64,000 bases of DNA from Thermomicrobiales bacterium (lineage in GTDB: Bacteria; Chloroflexota; Chloroflexia; Thermomicrobiales; UBA6265), in the NCBI GenBank assembly GCA_020853615.1, contig JADYYO010000342.1, positions 3,172-67,171 of the forward strand. The letters run 5' to 3'. This document shows positions 2,953 through 56,171 of the stretch, piece after piece (position 1 is the first letter of the stretch; each line of letters begins with the position of its first letter). A model generated the notes under the pieces. It had not been told where the DNA came from. It worked only from the letters and a program-made list of their open reading frames with translations, and ran no database searches. Both the position numbers and the translations under genes were made by a program.

Positions 2953-4839
2953 CTACGGGCCGTTGAAGACGTCGAAGGTGATCACGTCGCCCAGCATGGG
3001 CGCCGTCGTGGTCTCGACGTCGAACGAGGCCGCGATCTTGGACGCGACGGCGATGCCGAACTGCCGGACGACCACGCCCAGCATGGAGCGCACCTGGTAG
3101 GTCGCGTCCGGCTGCGCGACAGGCAGCGTGACGGTGAACGCCTGGCCCTCGACGCCGGTCGCGGTGTACGTGAACGACTGCCAGTTCGTCGGCCCGGCGC
3201 CGACCGTCGCGACGATCGTCCAGTCCGAAACGCCGTCACTGACCAGCAGGAGCGCGCCGTTGGCCGGCACCCGGACCGCGCCGGCGGCGCCGCCGATCGT
3301 GTCGGCGCCGTTCGGCGTCACCGTCGCGACGCCGCCGCCGTGCTCCGAGACCAGGACGAAGCAGCCCGGGCCCGACAGGCCCTGCGCGGCCGCGCCGATC
3401 GCCGGGAGCGGTTGCGCGATCGCGCCGCCGCTCGCGTCGAGCCGCATCCAGAGGTTGAACGTCGCCGAGACCGGCGCCACCGCCGGCGCCAGCAGGTACG
3501 GCGTCGGCACCAGCGACGGCGCGACGTCGAGCCGGGGCGCGTCGATCGTGCCCAGCCAGTTCGGGTAGACGGTGTTGACCGTCGCCAGCGAGCTCGACGC
3601 CCGCTGCAGCGTCGCGCCGACCGCGCCCACCACCGCGGCCGGCACGGCGATCGCGCTCGCGCCCTCGGTACCGATGAAGACGGTCGCGCCTGCCGGCGCG
3701 TCGATCACCGGCCCGGCGACGAGCGCGCTCGCGCCGATCTGCGACGTCTCGTAGAGCTCGAAGACGACCGTGTCGCCCGGGCCCAGCGCCGCCAGGCCGA
3801 AGAACGGCTGGCCGCCGGTGACCGTCTCGAGGACGGCCCCGTGGAGCGTCACGATGCCGCCGTTCAGCAGGTCGATCACCGCTGGCGCCGTCGTGTTGAG
3901 GTTGGTGACCTGCAGGTAGCCCTGGAAGCGGCGCAGCCCGGCGAACGACGAGCCCTCGGCCAGCTCGACGAACGCGCCGAACCCGTCGGCGCGGCCCTCC
4001 CACGTCACGCCGGTCATGTTGTACGCGCCGGCGGGCACCACCGCTGGCGAGACGAACTGGTCGTCGAACTGGATCGTGTAGCAGCCGCCGCCGCTGGCGT
4101 CGGCGCGCAAGAGGCCCAGCGCCGTGATCAGGTCCGCCCACGTGTCGAACGTGCCCGGCCCGGCGCTGCCGCCGCCCGGCTGGTAGATCAGGCAGTTCGA
4201 GATGCCGGGCGTGCCGCCGCCACCGCCGCCACCGCCGGCGTCGTTGACCGCGCCCACGGCCGCCGTCGCGGTGAACGGGATGACCGCCTTGCGGCCGCTC
4301 ACGCGGACCCGCATGAAGTTGGCCGTGACGACCGCGCTCTGCTGGCCGCCGTAGTTGGCGAACGCGACGACCGGCGCGTACGCCACGCCGTCCTCGGACG
4401 CCTCGATCGTCAGCGTCACGCCCAGGAACGAGCCTGCCGTGATGAACGTGCAGTAGGAGCCCAGCGCGCTGACGTCGACGGCCGCGCCGACGCCGTTGTT
4501 GGCCGGCATCGGCAGCGCCGCGAACTGCGCGCCGATGTCGCTAGCGCCGACGTCGGCGTTGGCGGTGAACGTGACCGCGCTCTTGCGGCCCTCGACGTTC
4601 ACGCGCATGTAGCGCGCCGCCACCTCGAGCAGCCGGCGCTGGTCGCCGTTCTGGAACGTCGTCACCGGCGCGAAGCCGGTCGCGCCGCCGGCGTCCTGCG
4701 AGATCTCGATCGTGATCGTCGCGCCGGGGAAGTCGCCGCGCACCACCACGGTCTTGTCGCGGCCCATGCCGCTCACGTCCACGGCGGCGCCCGGCCCGTT
4801 GGCGACGGGCATCGGCAGGTCGGCGAACAGGTTGGCCAT
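2953..4839 (-). CDS. large fibre/spike protein with duplicated N-terminal domain
   Basis: Start MANLFADLPMP (cat 4837-4839); two ~98-aa homologous repeats, G8 linker, ~420-aa beta-rich C-terminal domain. Confidence 0.75.
   Translation of the reverse strand: MANLFADLPMPVANGPGAAVDVSGMGRDKTVVVRGDFPGATITIEISQDAGGATGFAPVTTFQNGDQRRLLEVAARYMRVNVEGRKSAVTFTANADVGASDIGAQFAALPMPANNGVGAAVDVSALGSYCTFITAGSFLGVTLTIEASEDGVAYAPVVAFANYGGQQSAVVTANFMRVRVSGRKAVIPFTATAAVGAVNDAGGGGGGGGTPGISNCLIYQPGGGSAGPGTFDTWADLITALGLLRADASGGGCYTIQFDDQFVSPAVVPAGAYNMTGVTWEGRADGFGAFVELAEGSSFAGLRRFQGYLQVTNLNTTAPAVIDLLNGGIVTLHGAVLETVTGGQPFFGLAALGPGDTVVFELYETSQIGASALVAGPVIDAPAGATVFIGTEGASAIAVPAAVVGAVGATLQRASSSLATVNTVYPNWLGTIDAPRLDVAPSLVPTPYLLAPAVAPVSATFNLWMRLDASGGAIAQPLPAIGAAAQGLSGPGCFVLVSEHGGGVATVTPNGADTIGGAAGAVRVPANGALLLVSDGVSDWTIVATVGAGPTNWQSFTYTATGVEGQAFTVTLPVAQPDATYQVRSMLGVVVRQFGIAVASKIAASFDVETTTAPMLGDVITFDVFNGP
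4246..4836 (-). repeat. in-frame tandem duplication of a ~98-aa domain (aa 2-99 / 101-198)
   Basis: FADLPMPVANGPGAAVDVS...YMRVNVEGRKSAVTFTANADVGA versus FAALPMPANNGVGAAVDVS...FMRVRVSGRKAVIPFTATAAVGA. Confidence 0.85.
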
Positions 4840-29052: not shown

Positions 29053-29853
29053 ATGGAGATCCAACACTTCCCATACGCCCACCTGCGCGTCGCCGCGTGC
29101 AACCCGCGCGTCCAGATCGATCCCGCCGAGCTGCGCCAGCTGGCGCTGCACGTCGCGCGCGACGGCCTCTTGACGCCGCTCCGGGTGACGCCCGGCGGCG
29201 ACATCCTGGCCGGCCAGCGGCGCTGGCGCGCGATCGGGCTCGTGATCGCGTGGCGCGAGCATTTGGTCGACGGCGAGGATGGCGCGCAGCCCGACGAGCA
29301 TGCGCTGTTCGACATGCGGGCCCAAGCGCTGATCGGCGCGGTGCCGTGCGTCGTCGACGACGCCGGCGCCGCCCAGGCGCCGGTCCGCGCGCTCGCCGAG
29401 AACCTGCACCACGAGCCGATGAGCAGCTACGACACGGCCATGGCCTACGCCGCGCTGGCGGGCCCCGTCAACGAGCCGCGCCGGACGATGACCGAGCTTG
29501 CCCGCGAGACCGGGCGCAGCAAGAGCACCGTCTCGCGCATGCTGACCGCGTGGCGTCAGGCCGGCCCCGAGCTCCACGCCGCGTGGCAGGCGGGCCTGGC
29601 GTTCGAGCGCGTGCTCGCGCTGGCGGCGCTGCCGCTCGAGGCGCAGCGCGACGCGCTCGCTGGCGGTCACAAGAGTCACGGCCGGCCTGGGATCGAGGCC
29701 ACCAAGGCGGTGCTGCGCGAACTGCGCGAGACGCATGGCGACAGCCACCCGTACTCTGACGGCGCGATCGCCGCGCTGCGGTTCGTCGCCGGCGAGTTGC
29801 CGATGGACCAGTTCATCTCGACCATCAAGGCGGAAGTCGACGTCTCGCCATGA
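29053..29853 (+). CDS. ParB/Srx-fold N-terminal domain + HTH protein (ParB-like)
   Basis: LLTPLRVTPGGDILAGQRRWRA (GxRRxxA box), ENLHHEPMSSYDTA, HTH MTELARETGRSKSTVSRML; AGGAG RBS. Confidence 0.75.
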   Translation: MEIQHFPYAHLRVAACNPRVQIDPAELRQLALHVARDGLLTPLRVTPGGDILAGQRRWRAIGLVIAWREHLVDGEDGAQPDEHALFDMRAQALIGAVPCVVDDAGAAQAPVRALAENLHHEPMSSYDTAMAYAALAGPVNEPRRTMTELARETGRSKSTVSRMLTAWRQAGPELHAAWQAGLAFERVLALAALPLEAQRDALAGGHKSHGRPGIEATKAVLRELRETHGDSHPYSDGAIAALRFVAGELPMDQFISTIKAEVDVSP

Positions 29854-41188: not shown

Positions 41189-42118
41189 CTACGGCTGGAG
41201 GCCGTAGGCGTAGTTCATCGGGATGCGCTGCTCGATCCCGTCGAACCAGACGTGGGCGCGGCCCGGGATCCGGACCTGCTTGCCCCAGCCCTTGGTGCCG
41301 GTGAAGACGTCGAAGTGCGCGCCGAAGATGCCGCCGCCGGTGTCGTTCACGGTCACCCAGCCGTCGTGGACGTCGCCGCCCGGCAGGCGGAGCCCGACGA
41401 GCTCGAGCACCCAGACCCGGGTGCCGGCCGGCACGACGCCGCCCAGGCTCGCGTAGCGATCGTCGTGCCGCGGCAGCCGGCCGTTGTCGGCGGCGACCGT
41501 GCGGAACGGCCGGCACTCGATCCCCTTGGCGCAGATCGGCCAGCCGCCGGGCCCGGGCCGCTTCACCGCGAACGTGCGGACCTGCGTCACCTGCTGGCCG
41601 CTGACCCGCAGCCCGGCGTACCCCGGCTTGTTGGGCAGCCAGCCGTTGCGCTGCGCCAGCGCCAGCACCGGCTTGTAGAGCGGGGCGTCGGCGCCGGCGT
41701 CGCGCCAGCCGCTCACGTTGATCAGCCGCCCGTCCGCGAGGATGCTCGAGCCCTCGAGCGAGGCCTCGACGAACGCGTGGGCGTTGACCGGCGCGAGCAC
41801 GTGCCCGTCGGCGCCGTAGAGCGGCACCTGGCCCGGGCCCCACGGCTGGACCATGCCCACGTGGTAGTAGGTCAACTGCCAGCGGCGCATCGACTGGATC
41901 TGCGCCGGCGCGCTGCGCTGCAGGGCCTGCGCGATCGGCGCGAGGACGTGGTCCGTCTTGGCGCCGAACCACCCGTCGGCCTCGCCGCACGCCGGGTAGT
42001 CGCGCTGGAAGCGCCGCAGGTCGTCGCGCCAGTTCTCGCCCTCGTAGTCGCCGTCCACCTCGCCGTCGTAGTAGCCCAGCTTCTGGAGTGCGGCCTGTGC
42101 CTCGGGGATGCTCAGCAT
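41189..42118 (-). CDS. peptidoglycan-binding domain + 3D (MltA/RlpA-like) domain muralytic protein
   Basis: LQKLGYYDGEVDGDYEGENWRDDLRRFQ...ADGWFGAKT; C-terminal VNDTGGGIFGAHFDVFTG. Confidence 0.75.
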   Translation of the reverse strand: MLSIPEAQAALQKLGYYDGEVDGDYEGENWRDDLRRFQRDYPACGEADGWFGAKTDHVLAPIAQALQRSAPAQIQSMRRWQLTYYHVGMVQPWGPGQVPLYGADGHVLAPVNAHAFVEASLEGSSILADGRLINVSGWRDAGADAPLYKPVLALAQRNGWLPNKPGYAGLRVSGQQVTQVRTFAVKRPGPGGWPICAKGIECRPFRTVAADNGRLPRHDDRYASLGGVVPAGTRVWVLELVGLRLPGGDVHDGWVTVNDTGGGIFGAHFDVFTGTKGWGKQVRIPGRAHVWFDGIEQRIPMNYAYGLQP

Positions 42119-43860: not shown

Positions 43861-43979
43861 CGTGGCGTCCTTCGGTTGAGAGTCCAGTTTCGGTCACGCG
43901 GGCGTTCCTCGAGCTCGGCCAGCGCGACGGTTCCACAGGTCATCCACACCCTGTGGACAACCGCGATCATCACGTTCAT
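43857..43979 (-). CDS. 40-aa ORF coupled by ATGA overlaps on both sides (excisionase/RDF-sized)
   Basis: MNVMIAVVHRVWMTCGTVALAELEERPRDRNWTLNRRTPR; its ATG overlaps the int stop and its stop overlaps the next ATG. Confidence 0.4.
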   Translation of the reverse strand: MNVMIAVVHRVWMTCGTVALAELEERPRDRNWTLNRRTPR

Positions 43980-44833
43980 CGACGTTCCTCGACCGGCGGC
44001 TCGAACATGGATTCGGCGACCCGGTCGATCGCCTCGCCGCGGACGTGGTCGACGTACTGCATCGCCGTCGACAGGTTGGCCCACTGCATGTGCTCCATCA
44101 GCTTCGGGAGCGCCTCGGCGTCGCCGGCGTGGGCGCGCAGGAACGTCACCGCGTAGGTTCGACGCAGCCGGTGCGGGTGCAGCCCGTCGATCCCACACCG
44201 TCCTCCCAGCCGCTTGAGTTGGCGCTGGACCTTCCGGGCCGCGCTCTGCAGCCGCACCTCCTCGTCCTTGGACGTCGGAACGAGCAGGTGCGCGACGGTA
44301 TCCCAGCCGCGCTCGTGCGCGAGCAGCTCGAGCCACGGCTTGAACGTCTTGAGCACGGTGAACTCGAGGTAGCGCCGCCCCTTCGCAACGAACGAGAGCC
44401 GGCCCGTAACGAGCGCGCTGACGATCTGCGCGCGCTGCATCCTCAGCACGTCGGCGTCGCGGAACCCGCGGTATGCCATCAACCCGATCACCGCGCGCAT
44501 CGGCGGTGTAAGATCCTTCGCCGCCCGCACCTCGAGCATGAGCCGCTGCAGCGGCTGGGCGTCGACCGGCACTTTCTCTTTCGCGCGCCGGGGCGGCGGC
44601 AAGCGGAACTCGCCCAACGCCTCGCGCAGCGCAGGGTCCACGGCGTAGTCCGCCCAGCGGCGGGCGGCCGCCCGCACCAACCGGCGCGTCTTCGGCGCGC
44701 CCCGCTTGAGCCGCTCGATCCAGCCGCCGTCCTCGGTCGCGCGCTTCGCGTGGTGGACGTAGATCGCGACCGTGCCGGGCTGGAGCCCGAACCGCCCCAG
44801 GTAGGTGCGGAAGCCGTCGAGCGTGGTGGCCAT
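43976..44833 (-). CDS. int: tyrosine recombinase / phage integrase
   Basis: C-terminal catalytic motifs GLHPHRLRRTYAVTFL (HxLRHT-type) and LMEHMQWANLSTAMQYV (GH..x..T..Y); start MATTLDGFRTYL (a GTG at 44845 is also possible). Confidence 0.85.
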   Translation of the reverse strand: MATTLDGFRTYLGRFGLQPGTVAIYVHHAKRATEDGGWIERLKRGAPKTRRLVRAAARRWADYAVDPALREALGEFRLPPPRRAKEKVPVDAQPLQRLMLEVRAAKDLTPPMRAVIGLMAYRGFRDADVLRMQRAQIVSALVTGRLSFVAKGRRYLEFTVLKTFKPWLELLAHERGWDTVAHLLVPTSKDEEVRLQSAARKVQRQLKRLGGRCGIDGLHPHRLRRTYAVTFLRAHAGDAEALPKLMEHMQWANLSTAMQYVDHVRGEAIDRVAESMFEPPVEERR

Positions 44834-44845
44834 GTCCGAAAACAC

Positions 44846-45993: not shown

Positions 45994-46301
45994 TGGAGTC
46001 GCTTGCCCAGCAGCTGCGGGACACCGTCCGCAAGGGCCTCCCCATCCACCAGCGGATCGAGCTCGAGCGCCACCTGGCCGGGCTGTCGGGCTCGCACTGC
46101 GCGCGCGCGATCGGCTGGTCGCACACGCTCTGGCAAGAGCTCGAGGCCGGCCAGCGGGAGCCCCGCCACGAGGAGCTGCCGCGGATCGCCAAGATCCTAG
46201 GGATCAGCGTCCGCCGGCTGACCGGCGGCCACGCCAAGAAGACGCCCGGCTGGAAGCCGATCGGCCGGCCCCGCACCCGCAAGGCGATCACCGCGGCATG
46301 A
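45993..46301 (+). CDS. XRE/Cro-CI-type helix-turn-helix regulator
   Basis: GTG overlapping the TAG stop; LSGSHCARAIGWSHTLWQELEAGQREPRHEELPRIAKILGISVRRL. Confidence 0.7.
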   Translation: MESLAQQLRDTVRKGLPIHQRIELERHLAGLSGSHCARAIGWSHTLWQELEAGQREPRHEELPRIAKILGISVRRLTGGHAKKTPGWKPIGRPRTRKAITAA

Positions 46302-47203
46302 GCGAAGGCAAGTACACCAAGGTGGGCACCGCGCTGTTCGCGTGGGAGCCCTACCTGGCCGTCCGGCGCGAGAGTTCGGATGCCGCGCACCTGTGGCTCG
46401 CGCTCTACGCGTCCGCGCCCGCGAAGCTGCTCATCCCCGGCCTCTGGATGGGCGGCGTGGGCACGATGGCCGACGCGAGCCGCCTGACGTTCCACGAGTG
46501 CGTCCACGCGCTCGACCTGCTGTGCGAGCGCGGTCTGGCCGAGTTCGACCCCAAGACCCAGTTGCTGCGCCTGACGGCCCTGCCCGACAAGAGCGAGGCC
46601 GCGCCCAACCAGGCCTGCCTGCTCGGCTGGTGGAGCCGCCGGCAGGGCCTGCCCGACTGCGGTGTCCGCGAACGCCACCTCGACCTGATGGCGTGGTTGA
46701 CCCTGCCGATCAAGCCCTCGAAGCGCTCCACCGGGCTCGAGATGCAGCGCGCCTGGGACAACACCTGGGGCGCGGCACTGCACGCTCGTGCAGGTCTTTC
46801 CTTCCCAGCTTCTCAGGTTCCGGTTCTGGGTGCCGCAAAACCAAACCAGCTCGACCTGTTGTCCAGCCCACCAAATCGAGACGGTGGGGGGGACCGTCAG
46901 GGGGACGGTCGGGGGGACCGTCCGGAAGAGGTAGAGGTATTGGTAGAGGAGAGAGGGAGAGGTGCAGGAGAGGGAGACCCGGACCACCGGCTCTGGGCGG
47001 CCGTCCTGGCGTCCGCCTCGGAGGGCATCACGGTCCAGAACTTCGACATGTGGCTGGCGCCGCTCCAGTGCCAGCGCGAGGACACCCAGCTCCGGGTGAT
47101 CGCCCCGTCCGAGTTCCACGCGCAGTGGGTGAAGAACAACTACCTGCGCCAGCTGCAAGCCGCCGTCGACCAGCAGGCCCCGGGCCTGCGCATCGCCATC
47201 TGA
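46298..47203 (+). CDS. replication initiator-like protein with DnaA-domain-I-like C-terminus
   Basis: ATGA overlap. C-terminus LWAAVLASASEGITVQNFDMWLAPLQCQREDTQLRVIAPSEFHAQWVKNNYLRQLQAAV matches the DnaA N-terminal domain pattern. Low-GC3 linker carries DNA repeats. Confidence 0.65.
   Translation: MSEGKYTKVGTALFAWEPYLAVRRESSDAAHLWLALYASAPAKLLIPGLWMGGVGTMADASRLTFHECVHALDLLCERGLAEFDPKTQLLRLTALPDKSEAAPNQACLLGWWSRRQGLPDCGVRERHLDLMAWLTLPIKPSKRSTGLEMQRAWDNTWGAALHARAGLSFPASQVPVLGAAKPNQLDLLSSPPNRDGGGDRQGDGRGDRPEEVEVLVEERGRGAGEGDPDHRLWAAVLASASEGITVQNFDMWLAPLQCQREDTQLRVIAPSEFHAQWVKNNYLRQLQAAVDQQAPGLRIAI
46885..46922 (+). repeat. three tandem ~12-bp iteron-like repeats GGGGG(G)ACSGTC, followed by purine-rich lower-GC tract to ~46975
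   Basis: GGGGGGGACCGTC A GGGGGACGGTC GGGGGGACCGTC, then GAAGAGGTAGAGGTATTGGTAGAGGAGAGAGGGAGAGG. Confidence 0.7.
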
Positions 47204-47225: not shown

Positions 47226-48293
47226 ATGAACGAGACCGACCAGCGCCATCCCGTCAACAGCATCGTCGCGACCGACCACGAGATCCACATCCGCCTCGGC
47301 GGGCTGGCGGTGGCGATCCGCCTTGGCGCAGACGCCACCGACACCGCGGTGATCAACGAGGATCTGTACCTGCCGCTCTACAGCGTGGTTTCGCGCGAGA
47401 TCGCGAAGCGCATCAAGCTTGATGGCAAGTGGCCACAGCGCTTCCGTGAGTTCTTCGAGGCCGACCCCGAGTTCATCAGGAGCTTCGGCGGCGCCATCGA
47501 CGCCTCGATCGCCACCGCTGCCGCGAATGCGCCAGCGACCGACGATGAGCTTGCGGCGCTGTTGCGCGGCGAGAGCCTTCCGCGCGGACGGCGCGTGCTG
47601 GTGATGCAGGCGGCGCTGATCCGGCTCGAGTGGCGGCTCGGGGAGCAGTTGCCGCCGCAGATGCGCGAGATCGGGGCGCGCCTCGAGTCGCTGGAGCGCA
47701 ACATCCAGCAGCTCCGGTCGAACGTCGACGCCAACCTGACGACGCGGATCAGCAAGCTCGAGAGCGACATCACGGCGCTCAAGGTGCAGAAGGGCCACCA
47801 AGGCGACGTCAACGCCGAGCACAAAAAGGCCATCTCCGAGCTCTCGGTCGCGGTCGCCGGCCTCGATCGGGCGGCGCCGCCCGAGCTGGCGTCGCTCGTC
47901 GAGCTGGTGACCGGCCAGCAGGACCAGATCGACAAGCTGCAGGCGATGCTCGAGCCGCGCATCCCCGCCGGTGTGGTCGACGGGCGCCCGGTCGCCGGCC
48001 CGGAGATCGGGATCGCGCTCGACGGCGAGATCGCGCGGGCGATCGACCGCCAGGATCTCGCGACCCGCACGCACGTCGACGAGGCGGTCCGCAGGCTGGC
48101 CGCGACGATCCGCCAGTACGTCCGCGACCAGGTCCAGCAGGCGCTGCGCCGCCGGCCCTCGGCGCTCCGCCGCGTCTGGGACGCGCTCGCCGATCGCGGC
48201 GCGCCGTCCGCGCCCGCACCCGCGCAGGAGCCGGCGGCGGTTCCGCCGGCGATCGCCGAGCTGGCCGAGCAGGCGCTCCGGCGGGGGCGGTGA
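47226..48293 (+). CDS. coiled-coil protein (355 aa)
   Basis: Full ORF MNETDQRHPVNSIVATDHEIHIRLGG...; central heptad-like region (LESLERNIQQLRSNVDANLTTRISKLESDITALK). Confidence 0.75.
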   Translation: MNETDQRHPVNSIVATDHEIHIRLGGLAVAIRLGADATDTAVINEDLYLPLYSVVSREIAKRIKLDGKWPQRFREFFEADPEFIRSFGGAIDASIATAAANAPATDDELAALLRGESLPRGRRVLVMQAALIRLEWRLGEQLPPQMREIGARLESLERNIQQLRSNVDANLTTRISKLESDITALKVQKGHQGDVNAEHKKAISELSVAVAGLDRAAPPELASLVELVTGQQDQIDKLQAMLEPRIPAGVVDGRPVAGPEIGIALDGEIARAIDRQDLATRTHVDEAVRRLAATIRQYVRDQVQQALRRRPSALRRVWDALADRGAPSAPAPAQEPAAVPPAIAELAEQALRRGR

Positions 48294-48298
48294 CCCCG

Positions 48299-49888
48299 AT
48301 GGACGCGTTGCCCGACGGGCCGATCGACGTCGAGATCTTCTCGTGCGCCGGCGGCATGGCCGAGGGGTTCCGGCGCGCCGGGATCACGTTCCACATGGCC
48401 GTCGACATGGCCAAGGACCACTGCGACAGCTACGAGCGCAACCTCGGCCATCGGCCGGTGCAGATGGACGCCCGCGACCTGCTGCGGATGGCGCGCCTGG
48501 GCTGGCGCGTGCCCGTGCGGCTGCTCGTCGCCGATCCGCCCTGCACGCCGTGGTCGCGCGCCGGCAAGCGCCAGGGCGTCAGCGACGACCGCGACATGCT
48601 CCGGCAGACCGCCGAGATCATCGGGCTGCTCCGGCCCCGGGCCTACCTGATCGGCAACGTGCCGGGGCTCGAGGACGCCAACAACCTGGCGGTCGTGCAG
48701 GACGTGATCGGCGGGCTCGCGCGGTGGGGATACTGCGTCAGCGACTTCGCCGCGCTCGACGCGGCCGACTACGGCGTGCCCCAGCACCGCGTGCGGCCGT
48801 TCTGGTTCGGGCACCGCCACGGCCCGTGCCTGCGGTGGCCGTTGCCGACGCACGGCGACCCGTGCGACATCAAGGACACGCTGCCCGGCCTGCCGATGCC
48901 CGCGCCGTGGGTGACGTGCGGGCAGGCGCTCGGTCACCTGTCGCCGCGCGAGCTGGGGCGCATGGTCTGGCTGCGGAAGCGGCCGGCGGCGCCGGCGTCG
49001 GCGCTCCGCGCGAGCGTACCCGAGCGCCCGGCCCGGACCGTCTGCGCCTCGAGCTTGGGCGACGGGAACGTGATCAACTACAGCCGCAAGCACGCGCCGT
49101 CCGCCGGCAACCAGCCCGCCAAGACCGTGCGGACCGGCGGCCGAGGCGGCCACCAGGCCGTCGTCCTCGAGAACACCAACGACTCGGACCCGGGCCAGCC
49201 GGCCAAGACGATCGTCGCGGCCCGGCGAGGCACGCAGGCGATGACGCTGCACGACACGCCCAACCACCCGCCCGCGATGGCGTTTGGCGGCCGCGATGGC
49301 GGCGTCGACCGCACGCACCAGCAAAACAAGCCCGCGCGCGCGATCACGACGCAGACCGGCGACCATGGTGTGCTGGTGCTCGCGATCGAGGGCGCCCGGC
49401 GGCGGGTGCCGCAGTCGGAGCGCGTCGTCGCGACCGATGGCCCGGCGACGACGCTCCAGGCGCGGGAGGATCGGCAGGGCACCGGCATGGTGATGGAGTG
49501 GCCGTGGGCGCGGCCGTCGACGGCGATCATGGCCGATCCCCGGCTGGGCCAGCCGGGCCACAAGGACAAGGCCTGGAAGGGCAAGGGCGGCCAGCGCGCG
49601 CGCGCGAAGCAGCGCGGCGTGCTCTTAAGCGAGCGCGCCGGCGCGATCCTGCAGGGGTTCCCCGAGACCTGGGTGTTCTCGGGCGTCACGAAGAAGACGC
49701 GGTGGAGCCAGATCGGCCAAGCGATGCCGCCGCCCCTCGCGCACGCGGTCGCGCAGAGCATCGTCGCGCAGCTTGCCGCCACCGTCGACGACGGGCCGCC
49801 CGAGAACTACGTGGGCTGGGTGCCCCCGGTCGCGCGCACCGAGTCCGAGGCGCGCGAGCAGCTCGTGCTGGTCGGGGGATCGCCATGA
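48299..49888 (+). CDS. dcm: DNA (cytosine-5) methyltransferase-like, long repeat-containing target-recognition region
   Basis: Motif I IFSCAGGMAEGF, IV DPPCTPWSRAG, VI IGNVPGL (ENV Glu replaced by Gly), VIII QHRVRPFWFG, IX/X LQGFPETWVF...GQAMPPPLA. Confidence 0.8.
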   Translation: MDALPDGPIDVEIFSCAGGMAEGFRRAGITFHMAVDMAKDHCDSYERNLGHRPVQMDARDLLRMARLGWRVPVRLLVADPPCTPWSRAGKRQGVSDDRDMLRQTAEIIGLLRPRAYLIGNVPGLEDANNLAVVQDVIGGLARWGYCVSDFAALDAADYGVPQHRVRPFWFGHRHGPCLRWPLPTHGDPCDIKDTLPGLPMPAPWVTCGQALGHLSPRELGRMVWLRKRPAAPASALRASVPERPARTVCASSLGDGNVINYSRKHAPSAGNQPAKTVRTGGRGGHQAVVLENTNDSDPGQPAKTIVAARRGTQAMTLHDTPNHPPAMAFGGRDGGVDRTHQQNKPARAITTQTGDHGVLVLAIEGARRRVPQSERVVATDGPATTLQAREDRQGTGMVMEWPWARPSTAIMADPRLGQPGHKDKAWKGKGGQRARAKQRGVLLSERAGAILQGFPETWVFSGVTKKTRWSQIGQAMPPPLAHAVAQSIVAQLAATVDDGPPENYVGWVPPVARTESEAREQLVLVGGSP

Positions 49889-50790
49889 CCGACCTGCACA
49901 CGTGGGATCCGGCGAAGCTCGCGGCGGTGCCGCTGCTCAAGTGGGTCGGCGGCAAGAGCGCGCTCCTGCCCGAGCTCCGCAAGCGCCTCCCGACGCGGTT
50001 CGGGACGTACTACGAGCCGTTCGCCGGCGGCGCCGCCCTGTTCTTCGCGCTGGCGGCCGCGGTCGTGCGCCGGGATGCTTATCCGTGGAGCCACATCTCG
50101 GATCTGAACCCGCACCTGATCGGCGCGTACCGCCTCGTGCGCGACCATCCGTCGGAGGTGTTGGCCGCACTGGTCGACTACGAACGGCGCCACGCCACCG
50201 TGCGTCCATCGAAGCGATACCCGGCGCCCGCGCTCTACTACCAGGTCCGCGAGATCTGGAATGCCGGGGCGTTCACGACCGATCACCAGCACGCGGCCGC
50301 GTTCCTGTACCTCAACCGGACGTGCTTCAACGGCATCTGGCGGGTCAACAAGGAGGGCAAGTTCAACGTGCCGGCCGGGCGCTACAAGCGGCCGCGGATC
50401 GCGGACGAACGGCGGCTCCGGGTGTGCGCCGCCGCGCTTGCGGGCGCGCGCGTGGCGGTCGAGCGGTGGCAGGACGCGATCGAGGGCATCACCAAGAACG
50501 ATCTGGTCTACTTCGATCCGCCGTACGTGCCGCTGTCCGAGACCGCGAACTTCACGGCGTACACGCAGCAGGGCTTCGGGAAAGACGACCACGCGGAGCT
50601 GGCGGAGGCTGCGCACGCGCTCGTCCGCAAGGGCGTCCACGTGATCATCAGCAACAGCGACACGCCGGCGGTCCGCAAGCTCTACAAGGGCATGCGGATC
50701 AGCCGGGTGAAGATGGCGCGCTCGCTCTCGTGCAAGGGTGACCGGCGCCAGCCCGTGGGGGAGCTGCTGATCGTCGGAGGCCGACGGTGA
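49885..50790 (+). CDS. dam: Dam-family DNA N6-adenine methyltransferase
   Basis: ATGA overlap; LLKWVGGKSALLPEL, YYEPFAGGAALFF, CFNGIWRVN, VYFDPPYVPLS. Confidence 0.85.
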   Translation: MTDLHTWDPAKLAAVPLLKWVGGKSALLPELRKRLPTRFGTYYEPFAGGAALFFALAAAVVRRDAYPWSHISDLNPHLIGAYRLVRDHPSEVLAALVDYERRHATVRPSKRYPAPALYYQVREIWNAGAFTTDHQHAAAFLYLNRTCFNGIWRVNKEGKFNVPAGRYKRPRIADERRLRVCAAALAGARVAVERWQDAIEGITKNDLVYFDPPYVPLSETANFTAYTQQGFGKDDHAELAEAAHALVRKGVHVIISNSDTPAVRKLYKGMRISRVKMARSLSCKGDRRQPVGELLIVGGRR

Positions 50791-51419
50791 TCCTGCGAGC
50801 GGCCGCACGCGACGAGGTGCTCTCACTGTTCGAGCGGCACCATGCCTACGCGGGCATTTCACGCTCGACGACGTACCTGTTTGCTGTGGAGGAACCGTGC
50901 GGCATCGTCGCAGCGTTCGCGTGGCAGCCCCCCCCGCCCGGCGCCGCCAAGAGCGTCTGCGCCGAGGCACCTCATGGCGTGCTGGCCCTGTCCCGCATGG
51001 TCGCGGTGCCAAGGACGGATCGGGCGCTGCGGCACATCTCGAAGCCGCTTCGCCAGCAGATGCGCCGCATGATCGATCGGACGCGATGGCCTGTGCTCGT
51101 GACCTACTCCGACGAGGGACTGGGGCACACGGGCCACGTCTACAAGTGCTCTGGCTGGCAGCCGACGATCCGGAGCCAGCGACCGCAGTTCGTGGATGCT
51201 GATGGCGTTCGCCGGTCAGCTTACGCGAACGGCCGTAGCGGCCACGCTCATCTCCGGTCGATCGGCACGGCCACGATTCAGCGCTGGGAGCACTGGTCGT
51301 GCGAACGCGGTGACGCCGCCCGCTGGATGGAAGCGCATGGGTGGCAGCGCGTGGCCGTGCCCGGCAAGCAATGGCGCTCGGGCAGTCCCGCGTTCACGTG
51401 GGTGCGGAGCCTCGCATGA
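50787..51419 (+). CDS. Mom-like / GNAT-fold DNA-modification protein candidate
   Basis: GTGA overlap; ERHHAYAG, VLALSRMVAVP, VLVTYSDEGLGHTGHVYKCSGWQPT resembles the Mom-family YaD..GH.G.iY.a.gW core. Confidence 0.45.
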   Translation: MILRAAARDEVLSLFERHHAYAGISRSTTYLFAVEEPCGIVAAFAWQPPPPGAAKSVCAEAPHGVLALSRMVAVPRTDRALRHISKPLRQQMRRMIDRTRWPVLVTYSDEGLGHTGHVYKCSGWQPTIRSQRPQFVDADGVRRSAYANGRSGHAHLRSIGTATIQRWEHWSCERGDAARWMEAHGWQRVAVPGKQWRSGSPAFTWVRSLA

Positions 51420-54366: not shown

Positions 54367-55206
54367 ATGACCCTCATGATCCGCTACTTCTGCCTCGTGG
54401 CGCGAGGCGCCGCCGGCGACGCCGCCCACGCCTACCTGGTCGCCCTCGCGCAGACCGGCCGGCCGCTCCGGGCGCAGCCGATCGGCCTGGCCCAGTTCGA
54501 CTGCGAGCCCCGCTGGTGGCAGGTGACCCGGCTGTTCACGCGCCCGATGGGGACGCGCTTCGTCAACGTCGTCTGCGCCCGGCCCGGGCTGGCGCTGGGC
54601 GTGCGCCTGCCGGCGCGCGCGCTCCGCCCGCAGGGCGCGGACGACCCGCTGCGCGAGCTCGAGCGCGCGATCGGTCCGCTGCCCGACGCGCCCGACGACG
54701 TCTACCAGCCCGAGCTGGCGCTGGCCGGGCTCTACACCGTGGGCTGCCGGAACGTCGCGATCACGAGCGCGACGCCGCCGCCCAGCGACGTCGAGCTCGC
54801 CGCGCTCCACCGCTACGACCTGGTGATCGCCACCAGCCCGGACGACCGGGATCGGCTCCGGGATCTGCTGGGTCATCGTCACCCCCGCGTGGTACACGTG
54901 CCACCCGACGCCTCCCTCCTGGGCGCCTTCCTCGACGAACTATGCGGATCATCTACTTCGGCCACTACTCCGCCCTCACCGGCTACGGGCGCGCCTGCCG
55001 CGACTACTGCGCCGCCCTCCACCGCGCCGGCCACGATCTCCGGATCGTCGACTGGCAGTCGATCCCCGGCAACCAGGAGCGCGCCCTCAGCGCTCCGGAG
55101 CCGCGGTTCCGGGCGCTGGATGATCTCCTGGTGCCGTGGCCTCTGGCGCTGGGCGACGACGACGTGGCGATCGTTCACGGCACGCCGAAGCTCCTCGCGG
55201 CGGTGA
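54367..55206 (+). CDS. truncated paralog of the GT1 N-terminal half; ORF tail (after ~54945) is out-of-frame read-through of the GT1 gene
   Basis: MIRYFCLVARGAAGDAAHAYLVALAQTGRPLR parallels MRIIYFGHYSALTGYGRACRDYCAALHRAGHDLR; no stop codon until 55206. Confidence 0.5.
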   Translation: MTLMIRYFCLVARGAAGDAAHAYLVALAQTGRPLRAQPIGLAQFDCEPRWWQVTRLFTRPMGTRFVNVVCARPGLALGVRLPARALRPQGADDPLRELERAIGPLPDAPDDVYQPELALAGLYTVGCRNVAITSATPPPSDVELAALHRYDLVIATSPDDRDRLRDLLGHRHPRVVHVPPDASLLGAFLDELCGSSTSATTPPSPATGAPAATTAPPSTAPATISGSSTGSRSPATRSAPSALRSRGSGRWMISWCRGLWRWATTTWRSFTARRSSSRR

Positions 55207-56171
55207 TGGTGCAGGGCGCGCTGCCGCGCGGTGGCCGCCGCGTCGCGATGACGACGTGGGAGACCGACACGTTCCCCGGCGAGTTCATCGCTCCGCTCGG
55301 CTGCTACGACCGGATCCTCGTGCCGTCGGTGTTCTGCCGCAACGCGATCCTGGCCGCGCGTGATCGTCGCGAGGAGCCGTGGGTCGACGACGTCGTGGCG
55401 GTCGTGCCCCACACCTTCGATCCTGACTGGTGGACGCCGGCGCCGGTGTCGACGTTCCCGCCGGTCAACTTCTACAGCGTCGGCACGTGGAGCGAGCGCA
55501 AGAACCACGAGGCCGTGATCAAGGCGTACCTGCACGCGTTCACGCCTGACGATCCGGTCCACCTGACGATCATCAGCTCGGCGAGCGAGGGCCAGCGCGT
55601 CACGCACGCGTTCCAGTCGGTGCTGGGGCGCAGCGGCCTCGCGCCGGCTCAGATCCCGTCGATCGAGCTCGTCCACGCTCCGCTGGGTGACGCCGAGATG
55701 CGGGAGCTGCTGCAGCGCCAGCACGTCTACGTCAACGCCTCGCGTGGTGAGGGCTGGGGCCTGTCGGTGTTCGAGGCCGCGCTCCTGGGCCACGAGATCC
55801 TGACGCCTAACGAGGCGAGCGGCGAGGCGCAGTTCCTCGCGCGCTACGACAACCAGATGGAGATCGACAGCTGGATGACGCCGTGCTTCGCCGGCCCGGG
55901 CCTGCCGATCGTCCAGAACAACCAGGTCATGGGCGAGAAGACGCTGACCGTGCCCGGCATGAGCGCCCGCGGGATCTGGATCGACATCAACGTTCACGAT
56001 CTGGCCCACACGATGCGCGAGTCGCTCGTCTGTCGACTGTCGAAGTGCGGGCGCCACGCGAACACCCCGCGCGATGTCGCGCTTGCGGCCGAGACCCACG
56101 CGCGCCTGGTCGATCACTTCGGCTACGCGGCCGTGGCGGCGACGTTGACCGAGGCGCTGCAGCCGCTGTAG
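54942..56171 (+). CDS. family-1 (GT-B, GT4-like) glycosyltransferase
   Basis: MRIIYFGHYSALTGYG...; nucleotide-sugar half HVYVNASRGEGWGLSVFEAALLGHEILTP (E-x7-E region). Confidence 0.8.
   Translation: MRIIYFGHYSALTGYGRACRDYCAALHRAGHDLRIVDWQSIPGNQERALSAPEPRFRALDDLLVPWPLALGDDDVAIVHGTPKLLAAVMVQGALPRGGRRVAMTTWETDTFPGEFIAPLGCYDRILVPSVFCRNAILAARDRREEPWVDDVVAVVPHTFDPDWWTPAPVSTFPPVNFYSVGTWSERKNHEAVIKAYLHAFTPDDPVHLTIISSASEGQRVTHAFQSVLGRSGLAPAQIPSIELVHAPLGDAEMRELLQRQHVYVNASRGEGWGLSVFEAALLGHEILTPNEASGEAQFLARYDNQMEIDSWMTPCFAGPGLPIVQNNQVMGEKTLTVPGMSARGIWIDINVHDLAHTMRESLVCRLSKCGRHANTPRDVALAAETHARLVDHFGYAAVAATLTEALQPL

Follow-up and report, generated by a model that had tools for sequence, protein, structure and literature searches.

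Does a C5 cytosine DNA methyltransferase (C5-MTase) that lacks the glutamate regarded as essential in this class, and that repeats six times an element usually present once, still methylate cytosine, and does it recognize more than one target? This question is raised by a gene located in a DNA stretch of 64,000 nucleotides (positions 3,172 to 67,171 of contig JADYYO010000342.1, assembly GCA_020853615.1, labelled as Thermomicrobiales bacterium), which is referred to as the window. A prediction made from the letters of the window (the original prediction) had noticed both the missing Glu and the repeated elements, and had proposed either a multispecific enzyme or one with altered chemistry. Our analysis indicates that the gene probably encodes an active, multispecific anti-restriction C5-MTase whose catalytic acid would have been relocated within the active site, and which belongs to a phage-like element.

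Core motifs of the methyltransferase

The gene product scores above the cut-offs of PF00145 (130.3 bits against 22) and TIGR00675 (105.2 bits against 100.65), which bears out its assignment as a C5-MTase in the original prediction. It is 100% identical to P0001, an NCBI protein from a metagenome-assembled genome (MAG) labelled Thermomicrobiales and annotated 'DNA cytosine methyltransferase'. Among PDB sequences, phmmer matched M.HaeIII (E 2.5e-17) over amino acids (aa) 11-180 and 444-490 of the query; residues 276-322 of M.HaeIII lie opposite aa 442-490, so that a variable region is followed by motifs IX and X, as in C5-MTases. Foldseek returned a probability of 1.0 to 1dct and to HhaI structures, which confirms the C5-MTase fold and nothing further. 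The gene and its motifs, including that for S-adenosylmethionine (AdoMet) binding, are:

48299-49888, + strand: C5 DNA methyltransferase gene, intact open reading frame (ORF), 529 aa, PF00145 E 1.4e-37
48338-48370, + strand: motif I, FSCAGGMAEGF (AdoMet binding, FxGxG), kept in 118 homologues and in the alignment with M.HaeIII
48530-48556, + strand: motif IV, A-D79-P-P-C82-T-P-W-S; C82 is the catalytic Cys, and D79 is invariant where canonical enzymes have Gly or Ser
48644-48670, + strand: motif VI, YLIG119NVPGL, with Gly (ggc, 48653-48655) in place of the catalytic ENV Glu
48782-48814, + strand: motif VIII, QHRVRPFWFGH (QxRxR); Q162, R164 and R166 are invariant
49622-49672, + strand: motif IX, LLSERAGAILQGFPETW, aligned to M.HaeIII
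49706-49762, + strand: motif X, SQIGQAMPPPL, with GQAMP where canonical enzymes have GNAVP

Residue conservation was counted in 118 homologues, the closest of those in which motif IV is intact. The AdoMet-site residues F14, G18, G19, G23 and D57 are conserved, D36 is Asp or Glu in all homologues, and P81-C82, which contains the motif IV nucleophile, is invariant. The clade also departs from canonical enzymes, almost invariantly, by PCT-P-W instead of PCQ in motif IV and by the GQAMP of motif X. Judged by its sequence, the query has the features that define the C5-MTase family except the motif VI ENV Glu, methyl transfer itself being predicted.

Loss of the motif VI glutamate is coupled to a motif IV aspartate

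The codons ggc aac gtg at 48653-48661 are in frame with the ORF, and the motif VI reading GNV is correct. In the phmmer alignment, LIGNVPG of the query lies over LAENVKG of M.HaeIII with G119 opposite the ENV Glu, and the same register was obtained by aligning the query with M.HhaI and four phage C5-MTases in MAFFT, where D79 faces G78 of M.HhaI and the second Gly of GGPPCQ. Position 119 is Gly in 114 of the 118 homologues, Ser in 2 and Cys in 2, within the almost invariant consensus L-I-G-N-V-P-G-L. Both D79 and C82 are present in 118 of 118, and the motif IV consensus of the clade is A-D-P-P-C-T-P-W-S-R-A-G-K-R. The loci from IMG/VR and GTDB show the same motif IV/VI pattern, with Ala additionally found at position 119. 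The predicted substitution of ENV by GNV is thus real but not private to this protein, since it forms part of a conserved [G/A/S/C]NVPG that characterizes a whole clade and is coupled to the Asp of motif IV.

A wider phmmer search with the first 230 aa of the query, run exhaustively against 1.84 billion cluster representatives, yielded 17,778 proteins at E<=1e-3 and 100 at E<=1e-30. About 100 clusters (50% identity) have [G/A/S/C]-N-V-P-G, and every one of them also has the motif IV Asp. We read the residues opposite positions 79 and 119 in the best 150 proteins, which span the edge of the family. Asp in motif IV is paired with Gly, Ala, Cys, Ser or Thr in motif VI in 85 sequences (the lone Thr is that of P0196, a frameshifted fragment), and Gly or Ser is paired with Glu (GGPPCQ...ENV) in 39 of 39 outgroup sequences (30-45% identity); no case of Asp in motif IV together with Glu in motif VI was found in these 150. 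Neither Glu nor Asp occurs at position 119 anywhere in the clade, whether in the homologues or in the best-150 alignment. The two proteins that fall outside both groups (A+G and A+A, 'AAHNC') are P0140 and P0158, which are disrupted by inteins. The nearest annotated phage enzymes, from Burkholderia, Thermus, Arthrobacter, Mycobacterium and Bacillus phages, are all canonical.

The inteins (Hint plus LAGLIDADG; aa ~76-466 in P0140 and aa ~73-451 in P0158) interrupt the proteins precisely at the border of ADPP with the catalytic Cys, and inteins typically sit at functionally conserved sites. The junctions read ...ADPP/CFPxGT...AAHN/C(S/T)PWS (the slash before each Cys marking the border), and the catalytic Cys also serves as the +1 extein residue.

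The ENV Glu of canonical enzymes protonates N3 and holds N4 of the flipped cytosine, and the motif VIII arginines, possibly via water, are proposed helpers (PMC4802922). From the alignments and the structural models we infer that the catalytic acid of this clade has moved from the motif VI Glu to D79 in motif IV. D79 would take over the N3/N4 contact and the protonation, possibly with a water molecule and R164, and the small residue at position 119 would make room for it. AlphaFold2 was run with a 107-sequence alignment and, for P0036, with a 36-sequence alignment of the same architecture, the core being confident in both. Both models predict strands at 73-78, with D79 just after, and at 115-119, with G119 at the end, at a predicted local distance difference test score (pLDDT) >90. 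In terms of the class-I MTase fold, this would make D79 the last residue of strand beta4, beside the end of beta5. Amino-MTases with the motif (D/N/S)PP(Y/F/W), such as Dam and M.TaqI, share D-P-P at the end of strand beta4, and the D or N of their (D/N)PPY motif contacts the exocyclic amine of the flipped base. Their fourth residue is aromatic whereas that of the query is the Cys nucleophile, and the likeness is one of a single motif and not of membership. All else that catalysis requires is invariant in the clade (motif I, C82, Q162/R164/R166 and motifs IX and X), and the sequence of the query predicts a catalytically competent enzyme. Because D79 is available as a substitute acid, altered chemistry becomes the less likely branch of the original prediction, which had itself named an acidic residue substituting for the Glu as the observation that would speak against it; the invariant D79 appears to be that residue.

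Two further candidates were rejected. D126 (GNVPGL-E-D) was considered as substitute acid, but it is invariant only in close homologues and is replaced by T, A, K, H, N, G and others more widely, where D79 is constant. A private inactivating mutation or a pseudogene is ruled out by the clade-wide Gly, the intact ORF and a ratio of nonsynonymous to synonymous substitution (dN/dS) of 0.2-0.4 in the core.

Repeated cassettes between motifs VIII and IX

All six elements named in the original prediction are present between motifs VIII and IX (ERPARTV, NQPAKTV, GQPAKTI, NKPARAI, DGPATTL and ARPSTAI; nucleotides 49022-49528). The protein has six occurrences of the pattern P-[AS]-[KRT]-[TA]-[VIL], a number not reached in any of 20,000 composition-preserving shuffles (mean 0.04, maximum 2). 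The Pro residues of the elements fall at aa 244, 273, 301, 345, 382 and 406, with spacings of 29, 28, 44, 37 and 24 aa. The repetition therefore stands, although at intervals of 24-44 aa rather than ~25-38 aa, and the variable region measures 269 aa (aa 173-441) rather than ~290 aa. A remnant of a seventh module is found at aa 321-337. The repeat is present at the protein level only: Tandem Repeats Finder reported no repeat in the DNA of the elements, and the sole DNA repeat joining two of them is a 15-nucleotide match where modules 2 and 3 encode QPAKT, which rules out a recent tandem duplication at the DNA level.

The motif VIII-IX regions of 60 homologues are mosaics of ~25-35-aa units of the form ..[KRN]-H-[PA]-P-x(3-5)-[DE]-x-P-[AS]-x-T-[IVL]-x(3-6)-G..hydrophobic. 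When 715 units from 120 proteins were clustered in a fixed register, well-populated types emerged, each with a strong consensus, for example type H (PVHTSxxDxPARxITTQCRAPGHATTIVL, 37 proteins) and type D (RHxPAxxDAPAPTxGAKxRGQGAQVL, 65 proteins). The modules of the query were scored with hidden Markov models (HMMs) of the types, with the query and its near relatives excluded from their construction:

49010-49078, + strand: module 1, ERPARTV..., type C, 30.1 bits; near-constant first module of the family
49085-49174, + strand: module 2, NQPAKTV..., F-like variable cassette, 17.8 bits with the type-F HMM; swapped in P0004
49184-49258, + strand: module 3, GQPAKTI..., divergent variable cassette, weakly K/D-like (9/6 bits); absent in P0004 and P0014
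49259-49309, + strand: remnant of a B-type cassette, NHPP/AMAFGGRDGG; five relatives have 20 extra residues at the slash, SYSEEPAMVIRGGSGGGAVR
49313-49390, + strand: module 4, NKPARAI..., H/J-like variable cassette, H-like at 13 bits; the 28-aa D-type cassette of relatives is missing directly after it
49412-49501, + strand: module 5, DGPATTL..., type E, 52.3 bits; penultimate in 44 of 120 proteins
49502-49570, + strand: module 6, ARPSTAI..., type A, 52.9 bits; last module in 103 of 120 proteins

By these scores, elements 1, 5 and 6 form a near-constant scaffold of the family and elements 2-4 are variable cassettes. The six modules that had been proposed as reiterated target-recognition domains (TRDs) are thus real as elements, but only three of them are variable.

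Cassettes are exchanged across the family

The 120 typed proteins contain 1-11 units (median 6), and protein length follows unit number (r = 0.79). Type C is first in 87 of these proteins and type A last in the 103 noted above. The order is not fixed: D stands before F in 15 proteins and F before D in 14, and B stands before D in 16 and D before B in 30. The units appear as cassette-sized gap blocks in a 36-sequence alignment, and the types are kept across proteins with only 40-50% overall identity. The shortest members of the family have one or two modules and retain all catalytic motifs; a minimal member, such as the L032 protein, measures about 350 aa.

Five proteins that are 88-94% identical to the query in aligned columns differ from it by clean in-frame blocks. 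At 93-94% identity the insertions or deletions (indels) are of 20 and 28 aa, in frame and at cassette borders: the query lacks the 20-aa B-type core SYSEEPAMVIRGGSGGGAVR, of which the remnant NHPP/AMAF is left behind, and also lacks the 28-aa D-type cassette found in relatives. P0002 corresponds to a query-like enzyme plus the B and D cassettes, in P0004 a different cassette replaces modules 2-3, module 4 is missing from P0010, and in P0014 module 3 is absent along with part of modules 5-6. Comparison of the DNA revealed a GGTGCT microhomology at one indel junction, corresponding to the 'VL' ends of adjacent cassettes. Such family-wide shuffling of cassettes fits a multispecific enzyme well. 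The dN/dS values (Nei-Gojobori, query against three relatives with DNA from their contigs) were 0.27, 0.19 and 0.49 in the cassette region and 0.29, 0.39 and 0.20 in the catalytic core. Because the cassettes resemble the core in this respect, they are functional protein and not a drifting linker.

Three canonical outgroup proteins (GPPCQ/ENV; P0248, P0261 and P0244) also carry arrays, of 4-7 elements. The glycine and the repeats that the original prediction had reported together are therefore both real but independent traits, and long TRD-like arrays may be more widespread than the DPPC/GNV clade. These three proteins are high-G+C metagenomic C5-MTases with elements of the form [DE]xP[AS]xT[LIV]...G.

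Some family members have insertions elsewhere. P0135, P0150, P0153, P0160 and P0172 contain ~150-200 aa between DAADYG and PQHRxRPFW, before motif VIII, and P0130 has an insertion between motifs III and IV (aa ~67-230); a Pfam search of the ~150-200-aa insertions gave no match. Cys-rich insertions between motifs IX and X are present in P0140 and P0150.

Relation to target-recognition domains and known systems

The last cassette of the family (WPWxRP-S-T-T-V...PPGHHDE, then ...LSExAAAILQGFP) takes the place that one block ahead of motif IX holds in canonical enzymes ('EPSPTI.A...G...H(P)...R.LT.RE.ARLQ.FPD'). The elements match the P-x-x-T-[LIV]...G block that is conserved in C5-MTase TRDs, which supports their reading as TRD elements in the original prediction. 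Two general statements on which that reading had relied also held. With the strict pattern, the canonical ENV outgroup has a median of 1 element (most have none to two), as expected if monospecific enzymes normally have one, against a median of 4 in the family. M.SPBetaI of phage SPβ (mtbP), a multispecific Bacillus-phage enzyme with canonical motifs (FPC and ENV), has such blocks at exactly two places, GLSPTLTTMGGGHREP and GEPAFTVNTIDRHG / GEPAFTVNTIDRHGVAIG, 47 aa apart; its targets are GGCC and GCNGC. The pooled cassette HMM gave no match on mtbP, HhaI or the four phage enzymes, so that the likeness to those enzymes is one of pattern and not of score.

At sequence level, the architecture of the query is that of a multispecific C5-MTase, enlarged. 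In the multispecific enzymes of Bacillus phages (M.SPBetaI/mtbP, M.Phi3TI, M.SPRI, M.Rho11sI and M.H2I) and in M.BssHII, one core is likewise combined with tandem TRDs between motifs VIII and IX, each TRD having a P-x-x-T-[LIV]...G block at its centre. The Bacillus-phage enzymes are phage-borne orphans that presumably protect the DNA of their phage, and the query may be another. TRDs have reportedly been added, removed and reordered experimentally in the Bacillus enzymes, whereas here these changes are natural variation between sequences. The two groups are not close kin: the best Bacillus-phage match, to an enzyme of monospecific type, has 28.8% identity and covers aa 6-204 only. The Bacillus enzymes have FPC and ENV and 2-4 TRDs, compared with DPPC, [GA]NV and up to ~11 cassettes of ~25-35 aa in the query family, and the hosts here are uncultivated, the window is at 72.5% G+C and the phage background differs. 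With the monospecific PF00145 enzymes M.HaeIII and M.HhaI, the query has in common its fold and the sequence in which motifs I-X follow one another, its last cassette corresponding to their conserved 'TL' block before motif IX; it differs from them in lacking the motif VI Glu, in having the motif IV Asp and in the multiplied TRD block. Specificity also evolves by recombination of recognition modules on a constant catalytic machine in Type I HsdS and phase-variable subunits (PMC12707154). HsdS resembles the query in this recombination against a constant core, but acts through separate subunits with two large TRDs, bipartite targets and adenine methylation, and has no homology to the query cassettes. 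No description of the DPPC/GNV clade or of long TRD arrays was found in the literature searched.

The VIII-IX region consists of 25-35-aa cassettes in tandem, each of the form [H-P-x(3-5)-D/E-x]-P-[AS]-x-T-[VIL]-x(3-6)-G-...-hydrophobic, which matches the conserved TRD core. The type A cassette beside motif IX would be ancestral, and the others would have been added upstream of it. By analogy with the Bacillus-phage enzymes, every variable cassette would bring its own DNA sequence to the one catalytic centre, and several unrelated motifs would be methylated. The analogy thus suggests one specificity per cassette.

Genomic neighbourhood and carrier element

Four genes, of which that for the C5-MTase is the second, are tightly packed and encode in order a 355-aa protein of unknown function, the C5-MTase, a Dam-family and a Mom-family protein. 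These and other genes of the window are:

46298-47203, + strand: protein with a DnaA_N domain, upstream gene of the operon-like block
47226-48293, + strand: 355-aa protein of unknown function, directly upstream gene of the operon-like block
49885-50790, + strand: Dam-family N6-adenine MTase (PF02086 E 7e-53; TIGR00571 256 bits), its ATG overlapping the C5-MTase stop (ATGA)
50787-51419, + strand: Mom-family DNA-modification protein (PF25680, 35.4 bits against a cut-off of 27.1; phrog_1384), its GTG overlapping the Dam stop
29053-29853: ParB-like protein
41189-42118, - strand: lysin-like protein (PG_binding plus 3D domain)
43976-44845, - strand: tyrosine integrase
54942-56171: glycosyltransferase

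The DnaA_N protein has only the N-terminal domain of DnaA, situated at its own C-terminus (aa ~244-306 of the translated stretch), and may act as a module for replication control. Some 20 further large ORFs of the window have no Pfam or PHROG match. No nuclease domain was found among the neighbours of the C5-MTase (DnaA_N, Dam, Mom and integrase).

The order DnaA_N gene, unknown gene, C5-MTase gene is common to the loci L001, L042 and L044, with a gene for a helix-turn-helix (HTH) protein adjoining that for DnaA_N, and in close relatives the order runs from a tyrosine integrase to HTH, DnaA_N, unknown, C5, Dam and Mom. The C5/Dam/Mom block is kept in L042, L043 and L001, and L044 has a 90-aa ORF at the position of Mom. 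In L001, an 85-kb JGI contig whose MTase is ~55% identical, the order is the same with a radical-SAM-like gene between C5 and Dam; this gene (12217-13215 of L001) is a weak radical-SAM match and is absent from the window. The linkage to Dam and Mom is confined to the phage lineage of the window and is not a property of the family.

The family is carried by 23 IMG/VR viral contigs, and many of its members are on contigs of 72-89 kb. All nine matches in GTDB genomes (L002-L010) are MAG contigs assigned to unrelated phyla (Microbacterium, Byssovorax, Gemmatimonadaceae, Polyangiaceae, Dormibacteraceae, Patescibacteria and others), which suggests viral contigs swept into bins. Because these matches are scattered over unrelated taxa, the label 'Thermomicrobiales' of the window is not reliable evidence of its host. 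In cultured phages and plasmids, the closest proteins have at most ~35% identity, in the N-terminal half. The simplest reading is that of an uncultivated temperate phage or phage-like element with a three-enzyme DNA-modification operon; the element could be a phage or phage-plasmid of a very poorly charted lineage.

Weighing the explanations

The explanation that we favour is that an element of ~80-90 kb would use its orphan C5-MTase, together with the co-transcribed Dam-like and Mom-like enzymes, against host restriction, the C5-MTase being active through D79 and multispecific through its cassettes. Several observations weigh against it. The motif VI Glu is regarded as essential in M.HhaI, for which crystal structures of the E119A and E119Q mutants exist, and the compensation by D79 is proposed from an alignment and from fold topology. 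The exchange of Asp and Glu is a single phylogenetic event, and its covariation is therefore not independent statistical evidence. The pLDDT is <50 across the whole cassette region in both AlphaFold2 runs, so that no folded TRD is demonstrated, and TRDs of Bacillus phages are reportedly of roughly 40-50 aa, compared with ~25-35 aa for the cassettes. The three scaffold modules may confer no separate specificities. As for the element, no recognizable virion gene was found in the window with Pfam and PHROGs (20 further ORFs), and the family is absent from the cultured phages, plasmids and isolate genomes searched.

The same lack of a stable predicted fold is what a different explanation would lead one to expect, namely that the C5-MTase is active but the array is one flexible DNA-binding region making weak contacts. 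Methylation would then be relaxed, at short motifs or nearly nonspecific, and the number of cassettes would tune affinity or processivity. Cassettes that are short, rich in Gly, Pro and Arg and tolerant of any order agree with this, and phages are known to use low-specificity methylases such as M.EcoGII. Generic affinity repeats would not be expected, however, to fall into sharply distinct types conserved in distant proteins, as type H is in 37, and the differences in cassette content between very close relatives suggest selection on which cassettes are present and not merely on how many. The SPβ precedent also ties one such element to one specificity. A flexible array of low specificity is thus a credible rival, although in our judgement an unlikely one.

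A second possibility, which we consider clearly less probable still, is that the missing motif VI Glu signals a change in chemistry or a loss of catalysis, the protein acting on another base or substrate, using another cofactor or only binding DNA. Canonical enzymes are held to need the Glu for catalysis, the PCT-P-W and GQAMP departures are near-invariant as well, and in one relative the radical-SAM-like gene adjoins the MTase gene. Against this, the Cys, the AdoMet motifs and the two arginines of motif VIII do not vary in ~100 clusters, which would be pointless in a mere binder, and D79 offers a simple compensation. The inteins at the catalytic Cys and the core dN/dS of 0.2-0.4 also argue for a working active site, and apart from that one relative no further partner gene of a modification pathway was noticed, although no systematic search was made. 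Finally, it is very improbable that the elements are relics of duplications in a tolerant linker, with specificity residing only in the type A module and the conserved aa 173-237, because even if members with one or two modules keep every catalytic motif and the array is predicted to be unstructured, purifying selection on the cassettes is as strong as on the core, their types are conserved between proteins at 40-50% overall identity and their indels are always in frame and at cassette borders.

Implications for the family

Beyond the single enzyme, we tentatively put forward a possibility to which we give less credence than to the explanation favoured above: the proteins may form a new clade of viral C5-MTases that combines a hybrid 'DPPC' site, in which the acid of amino-MTases is joined to the C5 Cys nucleophile, with hot-swappable ~30-aa cassettes, offers up to ~10 independent specificities and turns over its repertoire faster than the protein diverges. 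The motif VI Glu has been treated as indispensable, and a conserved clade without it would demonstrate that a neighbouring strand can carry the acid; the DPPC clade would in this way form a link between the C5 and amino-MTase active sites. The arrays would also widen the idea of the multispecific MTase from a few Bacillus phages with 2-4 TRDs to uncultivated viruses with ~11 short modules. If each 30-aa cassette encodes a target, the cassettes would be the smallest known sequence-reading modules of a DNA methylase, and the near-isogenic natural variants that differ by single cassettes make a cassette-to-motif code directly testable. The family would then constitute a natural, minimal and programmable TRD system, of relevance to the arms races between phages and their hosts and to the engineering of targeted methylation.

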